Below, in pieces: positions 3,930 to 58,720 of a DNA stretch of 64,000 nt (position 1 is the first letter of the stretch; each line of letters opens with the position of its first letter). The translations under genes were made by a program, and so were the position numbers. The DNA lies in the NCBI RefSeq assembly GCF_018977255.1, contig NW_024704742.1:121274001-121338000 (forward strand), in the 5' to 3' direction. The notes beneath the pieces are model-generated. The model saw only the letters and a list, made by a program, of their open reading frames with translations. It had not been told where the DNA came from and did not search any database. The DNA comes from Callorhinchus milii. Taxonomy: Eukaryota.

Positions 3930-4440
3930 TGTCAGTCTAGTTCAGTCGACAGCAGAGTCAGAAGATTGAGTCAGAAGATTGTGGGTTTAAGTCCCATGTT
4001 GGAGCTTGGAATCACATAATCTAAGGTAAGATAACACTCCAATGCAGTGCTGGGAGGTGGGTGTTGCATTGTCAGAGGTGCTACCCTCCGGGTGAGGCAT
4101 TAAACCGAGATCTCGTCTGCCTGTTCAGGTGGACATTAAAGATCCCATGGCACTATTCCAAAAGAGAAGGAGGTTTCTCCCGATGTCCTGGTCAACAATC
4201 CGCCAAATAAAATTGGTTACTTACTCCATGGCTGTTTGTGGAACACTGCTGTGCACACCTGACAGCCGCATTTCACCCACAAAATATAGTCAATCCACTT
4301 TACAGTATATCCTGTGAAGCGCTTTGAGACGTCTCAAGGAAGTGATGAGGCGGTATATCAAATGCAAGGATTAATAATAATAATCCTTGCATTTGATATA
4401 GAGCCTTATCACATCAAAACATCTCAAACTGCTTCATACA
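3930..4440 (+). mobile_element. Deu-domain SINE (+, to ~4380) fused tail-to-tail with a minus-strand SINE tail (4381-4440)
   Basis: Full body and tail present. Positions 4354-4373 are the exact reverse complement of 4381-4400. Confidence 0.85.
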
Positions 4441-19974: not shown

Positions 19975-20350
19975 AAATAATAATAATCTTTGCATTTGAT
20001 ATAGCATTGAGTTTCACGTCTTCCAGACATCTATAAGCGCTTCACAGAATATACTGTAAAGTGAATTGACTGTACATTTGTGGGCAAAACGCAGCAGTCA
20101 ATTGCGCACAGCAGTGTCCCACAAATAGCCGAGGATTGAGTGAACAATTTATTTGTTTTTTTTTAAGGATTGTTAGCCCCGGAAAAGCAATCCGCCAATC
20201 GACTAACAACCGGGTTTCTACTTACTGCTAGGTAATCAGAGGCATGTAGAGTAAGGAAACTTGCCTAACATTTTGTCCTACCGGGAATCAAACCCAGGTC
20301 TCTCGCTTCCGAGGTGAGCGCTCTAACCACTGAACTACAGGACTCCACAA
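19975..20350 (-). mobile_element. Second-family tRNA-derived SINE, full length and relatively young
   Basis: Pol III A box TAGTTCAGTGG (20337-20327), B box GGTTTGATTCC (~20293-20283), shared tail with (TTA)n. Confidence 0.85.
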
Positions 20351-22050: not shown

Positions 22051-22439
22051 GAATTTTCTGAAACAATTTACCTTCATCATCTCCATGAATAGTCCACATC
22101 ATATATTCACCACTCGGTACAAAATAATCTCAACCGGCTGTTCACCTTTTCTCTTCTGTGCTAACAGAATTAGATGGTAAGGAAGAGAAATGCATTATAT
22201 TTAAGATGAATTTATGCCAAGGTATCATTATTAACAAGAGGACATCGACACAAGAGCTCACATAATCAACACACTTATCTACTTCAGCCGTCACTGCTCA
22301 GAACACACACTTGGAAGTTTACTACTGGGCTCCTACAAGAGTCCGTTAAATTGCACTCTGCTCCAGGGAGGATTTGCTATAATGGTAATTGTGCAGTTAG
22401 TATCAAGCACTGGCGTATTTCATGGTATTTGTCCAGCTA

Positions 22440-24105
22440 CAACAACAACAAGATTCCATTTATAAAGCGCCTTTCACGTCAGGAGGACGTCCCAAGGCGC
22501 TGCACAGTTGGGTCATGACCCGAGCAGGGGGGAAATGGTCAGGGTGAGGGGAGGGAAGGGAGGGAGCAAGGAGGGGGAAGAGAGTCGAGAGGGGAGCTGA
22601 AGGCTCGGTCAAAGAGAAAGGTTTTGAGACCGGCCTTGAAGGAGGAGAGGGAGGAAGCAAGGCGAAGGCACTGGGGGATGGAGTTCCAGAGCCTGGGGCT
22701 GAGAGGCTGAAGGCCCGACCACCGATGGTAGGGCGATTGGGGCGGGGGACGTGGAGCAGACCGGAGCCGGAGGAACGGAGGGTACGGGCAGGTAGGTAGG
22801 GGGATAGTAGGTCAGAGAGGTAGGAGGGAGCAAGGCCGTGAATGGCCTTGTAGGTGAGGATGAGGATCTTGAAATCAATCCTCTGGGGGATGGGGAGCCA
22901 GTGGAGGCGAGCGAGGGTGGGAGTGATGTGGTCGCGAAGCCTGGTGCGGGACAGTACACGAGCTGCAGAGTTCTGAATGACCTGCAGCTTGTGGAGGGAG
23001 GTGGGGGGAAGGCCGGCGAGGAGAGCGTTCCCATAGTCCAGCCTTGAGGTGACAAAGGCGTGGACCAGGGTTTCAGCAGCGTGAGGGGTGAGGTAGTGCC
23101 GTAGTCTGGCGATGTTCCGGAGGTGATGGAAGGCGGTGCCAGTTGTGGTGCGGATGTGAGGGAGAAAGGACAGCTCAGGGTCGAACAAAACGCCGAGGTT
23201 CCTGACTGGCTTTGAGAGGTGGAGAGTGCAGCCTTGGATGCTGATGGTGTCAGCGCCTGAGGTGCGGAGGCGCTGACGTGAGCCAATCAGGAGGGCCTCG
23301 GTTTTTCGCACGTTGAGCTGAAGAAAGTTGTCTCTCGTCCAGGACTCGATGTCGGACAGGCAGCTGTCAGGACATCGGTGGTCGTGGAGTTGAGAGTAGA
23401 GGAGGAAAGGTAGAGTTGGGTGTCATCCGCATACATGTGGAAGTTAACTCCATGTCTGCGGATGATGTCACCAAGGGGGAGCATATAGAGGGTGAAGAGG
23501 AGGGGACCGAGGACAGAGCCCTGAGGGACACCACATGAGACAGTGCGGGGGGTGGAGGAGAAGCCATTTGTCGAGACAAAGTGAAGACGGTGAGAAAGGT
23601 ACGACCTAAACCACTCAAGGACAGTGCCTTGAAGGTTGAGGTGGGAGGACAAGCGGTGGAGTAGGATAGCGTGGTCGACCGTATCGAATGCTGCCGATAG
23701 GTCGAGGAGGACGAGGAGGCAGAGGGAGCCCTGGTCACAGATGGTCAGGATATCATTGGTGACCTTGACCAGGGCAGTTTCTGTGCTATGGGCAGCACGG
23801 AAACCTGACTGAAGGGGTTCGAAAAGTGAATGGGTGGAAAGGAAAGAGCGCAGTTGGGAGGCGACAACTCTTTCCAGGACCTTGGAGAGAAAGGGGAGGT
23901 TGGAGATGGGCCGGTAGCTTGATAGCTGCGACGCATCAAGGGAGGGTTTTTTCAGGGTGGGCGTGATGGTGGCAGTTTTTAAGGGAATGGGGACAGAGCC
24001 AGAGGAGAGGGACAGGTTGATGATGTTGGTGATATGTGGGGCAAGAAAGTGGAGCTGGGATTTAAGGAGTGGAGTGGGGATGGGGTCAAGGGAGCAGGTG
24101 GTTGG
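22440..24105 (-). mobile_element. Young L2-clade LINE, 5'-truncated, with whole RT domain and 3' tail
   Basis: ORFs 23287-24192 and 22460-23311 contain [47 protein letters not shown] and YADD (23433-23422). Only two apparent 1-nt frameshifts (~23364, ~22693). (TTG)n tail at the left end. Confidence 0.97.
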
Positions 24106-24167
24106 TTTCAGTGCTAGGTTTGTTTTACCAGTTAGGATTTGGTTCACAGGGTTAAGAACTTGTCTGC

Positions 24168-24607
24168 TCGAATTCAAGATCCTCACCCTCACCTACAAGG
24201 CCATTCACGGCCTTGCTCCCTCCTACCTCTCCGACCTATCCCCCTACCTACCCGCCCGTACCCTCCGTTCCTCTGGCTCCGGTCTGCTCCACATCCCCCG
24301 CCCCAACCGCCCTACTATCGGTGGCCGGGCCTTCAGCCTCTCAGCCCCTAGGCTCTGGAACTCTATCCCCCAGTGCCTTTGCCTTGCCTCCTCCCTTTCC
24401 TCCTTCAAGGCCGATCTCAAGACCTTTCTCTTTGACCGTGCCTTCAGCTCCCCTCTCGACTCTCTACCCCCTCCTCGCTCCCTCCCTTCCCTCCCCTCAC
24501 CCTGACCATTTCCCCCCTGCTCGGGTCCTGACCCAACTGTACAGCGCCTTGGGACATCCTCCCGACGTGAAAGGCGCTCAATAAGTGGAATCTTGTTGTT
24601 GTTGTTG
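24168..24607 (+). mobile_element. Young L2 LINE 3' fragment of the same subfamily, opposite orientation
   Basis: About 94% identical by manual alignment to the reverse complement of 22441-22875. Encodes [20 protein letters not shown]...FKADLKTFLFDRAF and ends in (TTG)n. Confidence 0.95.
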
Positions 24608-24759
24608 CTCCTCGTAAGTCCCATGGAAGAGGCAGACAGGCGGATCAACTATCAAAGACACATTGGATTATTGCCATGTGCAATTTATCTGAGTCAGGTC
24701 AAAACCAGAGATTATCGAGATTATTAGTTATTCTGTCCCCTAATAATCTTCCTTGAAGA

Positions 24760-45260: not shown

Positions 45261-45939
45261 AAAAATGAATAGTGGCCATTTAGTGGTACAACGATGGTAC
45301 AAATGGGTGCTTGAATCAAACACCTTTCGACAAAGAGGAGGGAGATAGATTGGAGGAGAGATTTTGGCAGAGAAGGGGAAAAAATAAGACAGAAACACAA
45401 AAAATGTAGGGAATTCTCAGCAGGTCTATCAAGCATGTGAACAGAAGAGTTATCACTTTGTATTACTGGGTGACAGCTAAGAAAAGGGTGCTTTTTATTG
45501 ACGCACTCTGACATTGCCAATATTTTATTTCAGGTTTTCTTTTTCTCTCTCTAACATTTTACAGGGATGTCTTTCTTCCCTGTATCCTGACAAATTGCTA
45601 TCAGAGTATGGGAAACAACTGTGACTATTCATGCATTAAAATAATCTTTGCATATAGTACAGCACCTATGACGCTGAAATTCCTCAAAGCACTTCACCGG
45701 CAATTGCTATAAAGTATAGTGAGTGTATATTAGTAGGCAAATACAGCAGCCAATTTGCGCAGAGCAAAGTCCTGCAAACAGTTATGAGGTCAATGATCCA
45801 TTTACCTGGAGGACTGCTAACCAGATTGGAAAAGGTGAAATGAAACAAAAAAAGGATCCATTTGTCCGAATGATCAATTTCAGAAAAATGTAAACACCAA
45901 AAGGATTAACAAAATAGACGGAAGGTGGTTCAATGGCTA

Positions 45940-46260
<321 letters not shown>

Positions 46261-47385
46261 TTAACATTCGAAAGACTCATCTTAAAATCTGTAACCAGCT
46301 TTCATTACAATGAATAGGAACATTGGAATTGCTAGACAAAAAAAAACCCAAGGCCCATCTAGTTCACCTTCTATCATCTTGATAGTCGCACGTTATAATA
46401 ATGGAGATGTTGATAGCAATTATCTTGGCTTTAAAAAGGAATGAAAACAGAAAACCCAGAGAAGTAATTCTCTACCAGCCAATACTGATGCACCACCTAG
46501 CAGCTGGTTAATTTGCCCCAGAACAAGTCCATTCTCTCAATCAAGAGACTGCAACCGGGATGAGGGTGGACAGGAAGGCAGGAGAGGAAAATGGAAAAGG
46601 CACCTTATCTAAATCTATGTCAATTTCACGAAGGCTGTACACTGCAACTTTGACATTCACACCGCACTTCAAGTAATTATGGAATATAAACTGCGGTCTA
46701 AGCAACTGATGGATTCTATCATTAGCAACCATGTGAGGCAAGATGACAAACTACGAAGTTTAAACTTGAAACCCAATTCATTACTAAGAAACGCAGGTTT
46801 ATTATCAATTTTTTTTTAAATGATTCCTTACAATAATCCAGATTGTATTATCATACGGAAAATCTCATCTTCCAACTGAAGGTACATAGGCCAGGCTAAC
46901 CAAGGAATGCTCGCACGACTGTGGAGCGGTTCAGTGAATATTTGGCCAGGCCACTGGAGGGAGCACCTTGAGAAAAGAAAAACTGACAGCCGGCAAAGCT
47001 CGCATTAGAAGGCTGGCAGTCGAGGCTATGGCCCATGCATCCCGGCCCACCCGTGGGCTGAAACAGTGTTGTCACTCCTGCAAGACTTCTTCACAAGCAG
47101 ACATTATTCAGTAAGCTGACTTCAGGAACTTGGGACGTCCTCCCGACCTGAAAGGCGCTATACAAATGTAATTTTGTATTGTATTGCATGCACTGAGAAT
47201 TAGTCAACAATGCCACTCAACCAGGTTTGCTTTGACTTTGTAGCGTTAAATCTTTTTGTAAAGAATCAGTTGCTGCTTTTAGGCAATCAGCGTAAATGAA
47301 TACTCCCTAATGTCCAGTTGTCTCACCCTCGCTCTGCCAAAGGGCTACAATCAATGGGCTGTCAGACAAAGATAAATCAAACAGA

Positions 47386-48144
47386 CACTTGACACATACC
47401 ATGATAACAATATCGGAGAGATATTACAGATCTAAAGTAAAAAGAAATTGGGAGTCCACTGTGCGCTATATGTCAACACAAGCGCATTATGTGCAACGTT
47501 AAACCATGTGCAAATACAAATTCACAATAAAAGAATGAGGTTTTTAAGACAACTTTTGAAAACCGAGAGGGTGAGGCAAGCTAGAGGGAATTAGGAATAG
47601 TGTTTCAGAAAATGGGGTCAAGGTGTGGCAGAAAAATGTACAAAAATAATTAGAAGCTCAATCCAGCAGTTACTGTATCTCACACTATGAGGGTCTCACT
47701 GATACAAACTAAGATGAGTATTGGGAGCGTGTCTACAATTCCGATTTGTTACATCACAAGTTTTCATTGATGGATTTCATTAAAGGAAGTAATTGAAATC
47801 CATCAATTAAACTCATGATGTAACAAATCAGGGTCTCTGGACACGCTCGAATACTCATCTTAGTTTGTATTAGTATGACCCTCATAGTGCGAGATACTGT
47901 AACTGCTGGACTGAGCTTCTAATTATTTTTGTATATTTTTCCGCTACCTTGACCCCATTTTCTGAAACACTATTCCTAATTTCCTCTAGCTTGCCTCACC
48001 CTCTCGGTTTTTAAATCCTGTCTTAAGATCCTCTTTCTTTGACTGTGAGTTCAGATATCTCCACCTACCCCACATCCTGGACTCCCACTATCTTTGTAAA
48101 GCACTTTGAGATTGTCTCCATATGTGAAACATGGTACAGAAGTG
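47386..48144. repeat. Long imperfect inverted repeat (fold-back palindrome) in ZSWIM6 intron 8
   Basis: 47560-47779 aligns to the reverse complement of 47794-48010 at ~89% by manual alignment, with a loop of about 14 nt. Weaker homology continues outward to ~47386 and ~48144. Confidence 0.95.
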
Positions 48145-48201
48145 CAAATTGTTGCTGAAAAGGTTGGTTAATTTAACAATAAATCCTTTTCTTGGTTGTT
48201 A

Positions 48202-48555
<354 letters not shown>

Positions 48556-48869
48556 TTACACGGAAACATACAATCAGCTGATACACGCCCGGAACCAGCT
48601 TTATACAAGAAGTGAGGCTGTGGAACGCAATCCAGTTACATCTATGTAACCCATGTTTGTTTAATTTCTGTTTTCTCAAATACACTTCATTGTTCATCCA
48701 CACAGGTTAGATGGGACCAGTGTAGATGCTAAAGATTGTTTATTTCTAAGTTAAAATGCACTCCCCACAACGCTTGAATCTCGCTCAGTCTATGCTGAGA
48801 CAACTGTTCTTCCCCAATCATTTAGCATCAAAATACATGAATATTGACCCCGGAAGGGACGAGAGATAA

Positions 48870-48995
48870 GAAATAATAATAATAATCTTTGCATTTGATA
48901 TCGTGCTTTTCATGTCTTCTAGACGTCCCAAAGCTCTTCACAGAATATACTGTAAAGTGAATTGACTGTATATTTGTGGGCGAACACGGCAGCGT
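48870..48995 (-). mobile_element. Young SINE 3' fragment
   Basis: (AAT)n followed by ctttgcatttgatat...cacagaatatactgtaaagtgaattgactg. Confidence 0.85.
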
Positions 48996-49059
48996 TTTCT
49001 AAGAAAAAAAGTTTCCTCTGACAGTTTTTCCTTAATTTAGTCAACAGTGGGAACCAGCA

Positions 49060-49435
49060 ACAGTAAAGGGTAGGTTTGAAAACATTTCACTGAGGGCAAC
49101 TGGAATGTGAAATTCTCTGCCACAAACTCTGTTGAGCCAGAGTCCATGAACTTTTTGTGAAGTAAATCAGACAGATGCTTGGAAATGAATACTAAATGGT
49201 ATGAGGAGTGAGCAGAAAAGTGGGATTAAAGTGGTTCACGTGGAGAAAAACACCAGCACAGACTTGTTGGGCCGAATGGCTGGTTTCTGTGCTGTAACAT
49301 TCTGTGAGTAATTTCCTCCTCTATTGAATTGCTGGGACAATTGGAATTGAAAGGATTAGTTGAGATCAGCCTTGATCTAATTAAATGTCGGAACAGGCTC
49401 GAAGGGCTGAATGACCTACTCATGGTCCTATGACA
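49060..49435 (+). mobile_element. CR1/HER1-type 3' tail fragments (two tails in tandem)
   Basis: gggccgaatggctggtttctgtgctgtaa and gatcagccttgatcta...gggctgaatgacctactc. Confidence 0.65.
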
Positions 49436-49470
49436 GGAGGGGAGACTTGAAGTTAACTGATACTTTGTCA

Positions 49471-49776
<306 letters not shown>

Positions 49777-53200: not shown

Positions 53201-56200
53201 TAACTGTGGGTCCAATGACCTCATTCTGAAATTTCTATGCATTCTACAAAACCCATTGGTGTTCATATAACAACAAATGTCTACAGTTTGATCTGGGCCC
53301 CATTTTGGCTCATTTTGCATCTGTCCAATGCACATCTTACTTCAAAGGGAAGGCAAATGTACAAAGAGGTCAGATTTGGTTCAGATGGCTACCCTTTATA
53401 CATCTGTACAGGACCCGTACTTCCAGAGAGATGTATGGCTTTGTAGTGTTTGAAGGGGATAATGATTAAGCAGCTAGAATACCTTATTATTAAATATAGT
53501 TTAGGAAAATAAAATAATTAGCACTAAACATAATAATTAGAAGTTTTGGAACAATCAGCCTACCTCACACTATATGGTATGGTTCTGAACAAGATCTAAA
53601 CCAACAATTTTCACATGATTTTCATTAGCTGTTGCCTAGTTACAGATGAGTGCTTTGGCAAGAGTGAGATAACATGTGGGTAACAGCTAGCAACCTTTTA
53701 TTAATAAAAAAATACTGCATTCATCCACTACAGAGAAGTTTAGGAGACGATAGCTTCCTGCCTTGGATCTGCCTTGCACTTAAAAACATCTGAAGCAAAC
53801 AGACTGGTTTCACATCAGAAAGCAGAGCACCCTTCCCCCATACACTGCACAGACTGACTGGCAACCCCCCTCACCAGCACCACACGCAGACCAACCCTTC
53901 TAAATAATTAAACCATAGCTGAGAAAATGCAGATCACACACTGCTAACGCACACCTATTTAAGGCTACAACGGCTATAAATTCACAAGAGGGATTGCTGC
54001 AGCCACGTGCTAATTGCTACAGAAGGCCTGCAAGGGACTAAAATACACTTCATTTGCTTAACAGCAGGGGAATATAAAACTTTTTTAAAAAAATCACTGC
54101 ATCATTGCCTGAATGCGGCTAACTGTATCTAACCAATACATGTTGCTTATAAATTGGTTTATTGAAAGCCCAATAATATTTGAAGGAGAAGCATCATATA
54201 AAGCTGCAGATTCCAACAGGAGTTTGGGAAGGGTTCTACCATCACCCAAATCCAACTACACTATTTAACTTTCAAACCCAAATCATTTTATTTTTTAAAA
54301 ATCGGTCTATTTATATTTCTAGCACACATAATACTGTGTAGGGCATTTGACACAAGTATGTAAATTTCACCTTTTCCTTCAGATAATTGGATGCTAACTC
54401 ACACTGTGCTATGTAATTTAATATTAATTCCACAGGGGAGACAGTGGGAATAAATTATAAGTGATGTATTAGGAAGACTCGTGAGAACTGTTAAGATGGG
54501 GGTAGGGATTTCGAAATCAGAAAGTACAAACTGCAAAGATAAATTTTCTGCCTTTTTTTAAAAAAAGATTGGCAGCAATTCATTTTAATGTAACGTTGCA
54601 CAGATGGGATGAAGAATTTGCCTTTCAAAACACTGATGCTTGTAAAGAGTTCAGCTTTCTGTCCAAAAGCAGCAAAGTCAATAGTAACGCACACACAAGG
54701 ACACTGGATCTGAATGAGTGAAGTTCATTAATGACAGGAAGCTGGCATGGGTAACAGATCCAAATATGCTAATGATTGCCCAGTGGATCCCAGTTAGAGC
54801 AGGAGCTAGTGCTGAGGCTCACAATGTTGCTGGTGGTGGAAGCTATTTGTGGACAGCAGAGGATCCCCAACCCAAGATGAGATACACAGCTTTGCTGGTT
54901 CTGAAGTGTTTGAAACCATGAGCTTTTGATGGTAATTAAAGGCAAAGGGCAGCCACAGTTCACTTTCAGTAAAAACTGTGTATTTTTGCTCCTTCTTCCC
55001 CGACTAACAAAGGGTTTTTAGGAAACGTACCCTCTCTCACCTAACCATGTGAGCTGCAGCTCAGAACTCGAAAGCTTGCTCACTAACAATTTTGCACTAT
55101 TCTGAGTGCCTACACATTTACATTTTTTTTCGAAAACAAAGCCTGGATGTGTACAGCAGGCGGGCTCTGGGGGCTTGTAGCCTCAGCACAGAGAACCCAG
55201 TCATGAAGCAATCTGCCATGGACTCGGAGTCCTTAGACAACTGAATGTTTTATTTTTTGTCTTAATTCACTCCATTATTGAATTAAACTTTGATGTATTG
55301 GTCTTGACATCTGCTTCAAGCTGATTGTATTGTGTATGATAGTTTAATCACTCCCCATGCATTTTACAGTGGCTGCCTGATTAATGCAATAGATTACCTG
55401 TGCTATCCCTGGCAAGAGGGAATCATTGCCCTTTTCAATACTACACTCCTTTCATTTGTTGCAAACAGACTACATGTTATATTAAAACGATCTAAGTTAA
55501 ACCAAATTATCAGATCCGCCTACATGCGTTTTCACGATTTCTTCTAATAAGTCTGTTTTCTCGTTATAGACTGGGTTTAAGAATAGTAATCTTTACAAAC
55601 AAATAATCTCTAATTTTATGGGTGGAGAAACTCCTTCAGGCAATTGGGACACAATACAAATATCGCCAGCTCTGACAGAGCAAAACAAGGCGAATTGACT
55701 GCACTAGGGTTAGTATTAGTTCACCTCAGGTCAAACTTGGTCTACAGAATTAAATTCTGGTGTAGTCACATTGTGCGCCAATTTTTTAAAAATGATTCTG
55801 CAAAATTTAATTAAAAGAACTGAGTTATTTTAAAACTGTACACAGTTAAAATAACAGACAAGCAAGTACAGAGGAGAGTTCAGCAATATATCCTGAAGAT
55901 GGAAATCTTGGCTGGAGTTTGTAATATTTGTTAGGACAGAGTTAGTCTGCCGTTAAACCTGTTATTGTAATCTCTCTGTGTTGACAAGCTGTTTGGGGGT
56001 CCATCACTCTGAAGAATAGCAGACACTCATCTAATATTCTTCTACCTCAGTGGTTTCATCAGATTAAGCATCAGGGATTTAATTTAACAGTTTCATCTTT
56101 ATTAGGCTGTCATGAGAACAGCCCAGCTTTGATAACAGTAGCTGCTCCAATTATGGTTGGCTTTAAGAATGACATGTATAATGATTCATTTGTACTGTAC

Positions 56201-58394: not shown

Positions 58395-58720
58395 TAGCAA
58401 TAATCTTTCTATTTGATGTAGTGCCTTATGTTATCAAAACAAAAAGCACAGTCACTCCACTTTACAGTGTAACCTGTGAAGCGCTTTGAGACATCTCAAC
58501 AACGCAATGCAAGGATTATTATTATTATTAAGACATCATAAAGTGCTTCACAGGATATACTGAAAAGTGGTGCGACTATTTTTTGGGTGAATACAGCAGC
58601 CAAAAAACAGGAATGTCCTTTAAACAGCCATGGAGTGTAATAATAAATAATAATAATAAACCCAATTCAATTTGGGGGATTGTAGGCAAGGACACTGGGA
58701 GAAACTCCCTTCCCATTCCC
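58395..58720. mobile_element. Cluster of three SINE fragments in alternating orientation (-, +, -)
   Basis: Tail motifs at ~58400 (-), ~58445-58530 (+) and ~58530-58720 (-). Confidence 0.65.

Follow-up and report, generated by a model that had tools for sequence, protein, structure and literature searches.

An intron of Callorhinchus milii contains a large fold-back palindrome, which raises the questions of how its two arms became so alike and what happens to the RNA that carries them. The window (the whole stretch of DNA analysed, 64 kb of contig NW_024704742.1) covers the 3' part of a minus-strand gene of the ZSWIM4-8 family. Its last exon matches Pfam ZSWIM4-8_C (E 1.6e-77), and the closest atlas cluster bears the automatic name ZSWIM6 (0.97; ZSWIM5 0.95). 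The exons next to the host intron are presumably number 8 (upstream) and number 9 (downstream), a numbering based on human exon sizes.

Structure and position of the palindrome

Blastn aligns 47519-47779 with the reverse complement of 47794-48051 at 228 of 262 positions (87%, E 1e-75). The inner arms (47560-47779 and 47794-48010) differ by 23 events over 218 columns, i.e. ~89% identity around a 14-nt spacer, which agrees with the ~220 bp arms, ~89% pairing and ~14 nt loop of the preliminary description; each arm extends a further 40 bp beyond the limits given there, at 76% (31/41). From the centre outward, identity amounts to 50/59, 82/90, 64/65 and 31/41 columns, followed by an outer part with 61 of 84 aligned columns, a count made without a left-only insert of ~33 nt that separates the left outer homologue from the arm. 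The third of these segments, 47560-47624 against 47946-48010, is the near-perfect stretch of ~65 bp with a single mismatch that had been noticed before. The homology further out, earlier called patchy, is real as well: its local score of 51 is reached by 0 of 3000 shuffles and by 0.17% of random window pieces. Coordinates of all features are collected in Table 1.

Table 1. Features of the palindrome and its host intron (positions in the window)
Feature	Position	Strand	Remarks
Upstream ZSWIM6 exon, 144 nt	48405..48548	-	donor CAG/GTGTGC
Host intron, 2196 nt	46209..48404	-	both arms inside
Downstream ZSWIM6 exon	45948..46208	-	
Left inner arm, 3' strand of the predicted pre-mRNA duplex	47560..47779	.	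~89% complementary to 47794-48011
Spacer, 14 nt	47780..47793	.	RNA fold: 3 extra pairs, 7-nt loop
Right inner arm, 5' strand of the predicted pre-mRNA duplex	47794..48011	.	carries all 10 listed candidate A-to-I sites
Left arm beyond the identity step	47519..47559	.	31/41 complementary to 48011-48051
Left outer homologue, decayed, of the region with the L2 tail (48065-48157)	47382..47470	-	61/84 aligned columns
3' end of an old L2 LINE including its tail, antisense to the gene	47948..48157	+	nhmmer E 9e-13
Mirror L2 fragment in the left arm, includes the 65-bp near-perfect segment	47518..47622	-	E 9e-4
Candidate A-to-I sites (T>C on + in X5)	47871, 47900, 47920, 47971, 47973, 47977, 47987, 48002, 48008, 48009	-	X5 contigs

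The intron starts at 48404, 393 nt from 48011, close to the ~400 nt previously estimated between the donor GTGTGC and the core of the duplex. The duplex spans from 353-393 nt past the donor to ~1.3 kb before the acceptor.

The fold-back is the longest short-spacer palindrome in the 64-kb window. Others are found at 2121-2278, 4315-4436 and 58440-58585 (70-78%), where inverted repeat fragments abut; the last of them lies inside a ZSWIM6 intron and would fold in the pre-mRNA too.

Assembly support

Contigs of four sequencing runs (X3, X5, X6 and X7), out of 24 listed, 8 of which contain all or part of the stretch, were compared to 45900-49660 at 80% likeness. None of these 8 is registered as RNA, which is neutral as evidence. 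One X3 contig (47651-47916) spans the palindrome centre, and one X6 contig (47760-48171) covers, at 0 differences, the loop together with the entire right arm; the latter has low depth and may itself have gone into the assembly. Each arm is joined to its unique flank by further contigs. Among the pieces listed, no single contig spans the whole palindrome; the X3 contigs break at the exact-match stretches, as would be expected of such contigs. As contigs of two independent runs (X3, X6) traverse the centre, the inversion is supported, and an assembly artefact is unlikely.

LINE content of the arms

The LINE copies of the window, which we take to be L2, include a reference copy that carries RVT_1 (Pfam). 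An L2 profile built from the window copies, with 46001-49000 masked, matches 47951-48157 on the plus strand (nhmmer, E 9e-13), tail included, and 47620-47538 on the minus strand (E 9e-4), but neither the inner ~150 bp of the arms nor the left outer part. Since the profile matches on both strands, the palindrome contains two L2 fragments with their tails outward, and the 65-bp segment is LINE-derived. The best-paired part of the arms thus sits within the L2-derived sequence and not in the inner ~150 bp. Of the outer parts, earlier taken for an old L2 3' end, the right one and the left-arm fragment are recognised by the profile, whereas the left outer part is unmatched.

The inner ~150 bp had been said to match nothing else in the window, and against the L2 consensus and 7 window copies it gives no signal (z -1.4 to 0.6); an older L2 subfamily absent from the window could still account for it. 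A candidate relative of the inner arm at 53510-53600 was dropped, as 0.27% of random pieces score equally and ~2.5 such matches are expected per window. The arms agree with each other at 31 core and 21 outer positions where the young window copies differ, which suggests that they are copies of each other or of one old subfamily.

At 47122-47178 (+), 200 bp beyond the left arm, lies a separate, younger LINE/SINE tail of very high copy number in 4/4 runs.

Identity step and origin

Identity along the arms has a change point at column 221 (47560/48011; p<1/5000 over 353 columns), with ~89% inside and ~73-76% outside; the JC distance is 0.12 for the 261-column core, compared with 0.30-0.34 beyond it. 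The 218 inner columns are compatible with uniform decay (best low-divergence segment, p=0.18), while the same test over the 261-column core is borderline and falls on the 65-bp segment (p=0.044). The arm-identity gradient of the preliminary description is therefore non-uniform as claimed, but has the shape of a step whose interior is compatible with even decay. The left arm does not decay significantly faster than the right one (24 against 13 polarised sites, p=0.10).

Because of the step, one evenly decaying duplication does not fit. The step, combined with an interior compatible with uniform decay, indicates that one homogenising event would be enough, without selection. The fold-back is probably a locus-specific quasi-palindrome that stems from a DNA copying accident and whose transcript is an ordinary ADAR substrate.

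A plausible course begins with what is seen, i.e. old L2 3' sequence in both arms, tails outward, together with the mirrored ~150 bp. The inner ~220 bp would have become mirror-identical in one event, after the outer parts had diverged. This may have happened by a fold-back or template switch from the centre, rejoining through a pre-existing inverted L2 copy, or by one long conversion tract over an older fold-back duplication of ~370 bp; judged from the arms, both routes would fit the data equally. Neutral decay would thereafter have brought the difference between the arms to ~11%; a short tract across the 65-bp segment may have followed later and is not needed. In the minus-strand pre-mRNA the arms are predicted to pair as a duplex of ~220-250 bp, which ADAR would edit at several sites, densest in the best-paired helices (one run), and the intron with the duplex would then be removed by splicing. 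Template switching can create or homogenise the arms of inverted repeats, shorter ones in the cases described (PMC8604942, PMC10710096).

A recent analogue of the arm arrangement is found at 22435-24609, where a young LINE pair lies with tails outward. Its long copy on the minus strand (24190 to 22435), with RVT_1 at 23290-24090, adjoins a 3' fragment of 440 bp on the plus strand, and the two are 93% complementary over 443 columns.

Predicted pairing in RNA and DNA

The duplex of >200 bp formerly proposed for the pre-mRNA is reproduced by folding: the minus-strand RNA reaches -444 kcal/mol (z=-31 against 20 shuffles), and the predicted fold of the intron (pair span <=700 nt) holds 235 arm-to-arm pairs. 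Predicted helices in the transcript are at most 36 bp long. The apical stem consists of 40 pairs and is bounded by the largest internal loop, near 47832-47839. A small hairpin of its own is formed in the RNA fold by 47455-47500, the region of the left-only insert.

As single-stranded DNA the palindrome is predicted to form a stable hairpin (about -220 kcal/mol). Cruciform extrusion, by comparison, begins centrally, and short spacers as well as high identity promote it (PMC7999016). With 14 nt between the arms and mismatches close to the centre, duplex DNA therefore appears less likely to form a cruciform than single strands are to form the hairpin.

Selection for pairing

Selection for pairing had been offered as one cause of the gradient, and the arms do not bear it out. 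G-U wobble pairs are not favoured, the 17 arm transitions on the transcribed strand comprising 9 G-U and 8 A-C. Nor is the core poor in SNPs: in X3 the 452 covered bases of the core contain 3 listed SNPs, and the 2467 bases of the flanks contain no more than 5 (p=0.11). Both comparisons have low power. Individual SNPs point both ways, as 47543 T>C (X3 and X5, not X7) restores the pair with 48027, while those at 47698 and 47795 break or weaken pairs. An orthologue search by the downstream exon in metagenome contigs yielded 18 loci from 458 candidate stretches (best 72-76% amino-acid identity). None of the 18 contains a meaningful match to the palindrome, and the 4 of them scanned for inverted repeats have none >35 nt. 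A 6-base deletion polymorphism occurs in X3 at 48358, ~45 nt downstream of the exon donor.

On these few SNPs, the fold-back would most simply be the neutral product of one homogenising event. That the duplex is instead kept by selection as a regulatory RNA, be it for ADAR recruitment in the manner of an editing inducer or for tuning of splicing or retention, is unlikely. Its length and apparent editing, the genuine identity step with the borderline 65-bp segment, the pair restored at 47543 and a donor that departs from the consensus at +3/+4/+6 would suit such a role. They are set against the missing G-U excess, the pair-breaking SNPs and the distance of the duplex from the donor, 353-393 nt compared with 32-230 nt in the editing inducers tabulated in PMC5654063. 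Furthermore, the exon has no distant intronic partner in the predicted fold: its pairing is confined to the exon itself and the sequence directly beside it, and exon-complementary sequence is not seen.

A-to-I editing of the transcript

T>C on the plus strand corresponds to A>G on the transcript. Such changes make up 23 of the 55 tallied differences in X5, 9/46 in X3 and 4/25 in X6; X7, a second probable RNA run, has no T>C excess (10/43), and its contigs miss the core. Neither this gap nor the missing exon cover in X5 and X7 is counted as evidence. The T>C share of X5 exceeds that of X3 and X6 together (13/71; p=0.005), and within X5 T>C outnumbers A>G (23 against 4, p=0.0003). With 47543 and 48056 (both also in X3) and five rows in repeats left out, every T>C site still listed for X5 is in the duplex (10/10), all in its right arm, and no left-arm editing site is among the X5 differences listed, which are 12 of the 20 on the three arm contigs of this run. 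Listed T>C confined to X5 affects 10 of 104 covered T of the core and 0 of 326 outside (p=5e-7); even in the worst case, with 7 further X5 differences all taken as T>C outside the core, p is 0.002.

In the predicted fold nine of the ten sites belong to A-U pairs, and the tenth faces a C. A 5' neighbour U or A is found at 9/10 sites compared with 41/77 (p=0.026), and four of the ten read UAG. The scarcity of 5' G (1/10 against 20/77, p=0.25) and the frequency of 3' G (5/10 against 24/77, p=0.20) are not significant alone. A folding proxy that replaces A by G (-374 to -378 kcal/mol) was discarded as uninformative, because inosine differs from guanosine in pairing energy.

X5 comprises 269 million letters at a local depth of ~9, X3 885 million at a depth of 6-8, a relation of size and depth that would fit RNA better than whole-genome DNA for X5. 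No splice joint is found among the 15 listed of 406 joints. The strand-specific A>G cluster in this one probable RNA run supports the ADAR substrate proposed before: the fold-back RNA is probably ADAR-edited, as seen with one contig per site and DNA from two other runs. Contigs drop rare variants, so that the sites were probably edited in most molecules of the X5 sample.

That the T>C cluster of X5, in a hairpin that is itself genuine, reflects variation in the genome, a contig from a paralogue or an artefact of the run's assembly is decidedly unlikely. Alleles can look like editing, each site is read by one contig, the RNA status of X5 is an automatic guess and the DNA comes from other runs. 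The X6 contig, however, has T at all ten sites, and the X3 locus contigs have T at the 9 sites that they cover. Two further X3 contigs read C at 48009 and are taken as LINE relatives from other loci on grounds of depth arithmetic. The ten listed changes are all of one kind and on the expected strand, and the 16 contig differences in 513 bases far exceed the DNA rate of 0.27% (Poisson p=3e-12). Elsewhere in the host intron an X5 contig shows 1 difference in 811 bases, which argues that X5 is not a divergent haplotype. At 47871 the change equals the left-arm base and could therefore be cross-arm, but the other nine sites have T in both arms and cannot be cross-arm bases. The contig with 7 of the 10 sites continues to 48343 in unique flank.

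Seven of the ten listed candidate editing sites fall inside the 65-bp near-perfect segment, over a span of 39 nt. It is very unlikely that a fold-back born of a replication accident now serves as a co-opted, ADAR-gated switch by which the ZSWIM6 intron is spliced or retained, with this segment held paired by selection or by repeated arm-to-arm correction. If true, a chance fold-back would have become an editing-dependent regulator of a neurodevelopmental gene.

Small RNAs

The hairpin had also been considered as a source of small RNAs. The 40-bp stem at the apex would then give rise to a young miRNA, or the long duplex to endo-siRNAs; we regard this as highly improbable. Editing tends to oppose small-RNA processing. 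The apical stem is closed off by the largest internal loop, and an intronic position sense to the host gene is the usual setting of template-switch miRNAs (PMC10710096). The stem nevertheless runs into a duplex of ~200 bp, whereas a stem of ~35 bp with single-stranded flanks is preferred according to the same source, and the L2 part is far from the loop. No Rfam family reaches its gathering score at the palindrome, the best match (38.8 against 83 bits) being that of a generic hairpin. Eleven sub-threshold matches to Rfam miRNA models at the apex were rejected as generic hairpin scores. The one gathering-level Rfam match in the window is a tRNA elsewhere (20273-20344, minus strand, 49 bits), which could be the head of a tRNA-derived SINE.

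Copy number

Read depth of X3 is 5.8-8.5 in the bins of the inner arms and 7.7-9.6 in most bins of unique flank, whereas values of 1e5-3e6 are attained by known repeats of this stretch; depth is not copy number, and copies <80% alike would escape. The palindrome appears single-copy at 80% likeness, and no further copy occurs within the 64-kb window. Flank-level depth over the inner arms in this whole-genome run thus favours the local event over the MITE family, the two outcomes envisaged earlier. Although nearly the whole element consists of two inverted arms, its being one copy of a dispersed foldback or MITE-type element is extremely improbable given one contig per position at flank-level depth, a window without a second copy, an identity that peaks inside and decayed ends (outer flanks, inspection by eye) made of LINE tail instead of terminal inverted repeats.

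Significance

Our verdict is that the fold-back is a genuine, LINE-containing and otherwise ordinary, probably edited intronic inverted repeat. It is one more of a kind whose sites in one cartilaginous fish number in the hundreds of thousands (PMC5625713) and of modest value as a clean single-copy test case, in which public data bore out an ADAR activity predicted from sequence alone. A homogenising event can be dated by the sharp step in identity, and orthologues could separate template switching from conversion. Greater weight would attach to the locus only if the duplex alters ZSWIM6 splicing or is kept by compensatory change. Among the papers listed by a literature search, which included few subscription journals, none deals with editing of the ZSWIM6 intron; the supplementary site lists of PMC5625713 might include the locus.

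Comparison with known systems

The closest counterparts are hyper-edited intronic inverted repeats, such as inverted Alu pairs, the palindromic Harbinger repeat of Xenopus and the repeats of elephant-shark brain (PMC5625713), which likewise provide long, near-perfect dsRNA of repeat origin within one transcript. For elephant-shark brain 200,171 unique hyper-edited sites are reported, 81% of them in repeats; palindromic repeats need no partner copy to be edited (PMC5625713). Clustered A>G and a short loop are common to these systems and the ZSWIM6 intron, and a scarcity of 5' G neighbours, not significant alone in the intron, may be so too. In contrast to them, the locus is a single-copy fold-back and not two copies of a living repeat family, and only ~40% of each arm is recognisably L2.

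The hairpins of mir-28 and mir-95, and that of mir-151, span tail-to-tail L2 junctions. Like the present fold-back, these L2-derived miRNAs contain inverted L2 sequence in a hairpin (PMC4482582). Here, however, 150 bp separate the L2 parts from the loop, and a pre-miRNA is much shorter than the duplex.

Editing inducers, e.g. of GluA2 and Gabra3 (PMC5654063), resemble the locus in being long intronic stems downstream of an exon that are themselves edited. Those tabulated there are conserved stems of 25-54 bp at 32-230 nt from the recoding site, whereas the duplex of ZSWIM6 measures ~220-250 bp, lies at least 353 nt from the exon and is known from one species.

With respect to origin, template-switch quasi-palindromes (Ripley model; PMC8604942, PMC10710096) and arm-to-arm conversion likewise produce or perfect a reverse-complement copy in one event, visible as a block of higher identity. 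The cases described in these two sources have arms of 7-16 bp and stems of 30-55 bases, in contrast to the block of ~220 bp in ZSWIM6, where the event is deduced from the two arms themselves, without an ancestral state.
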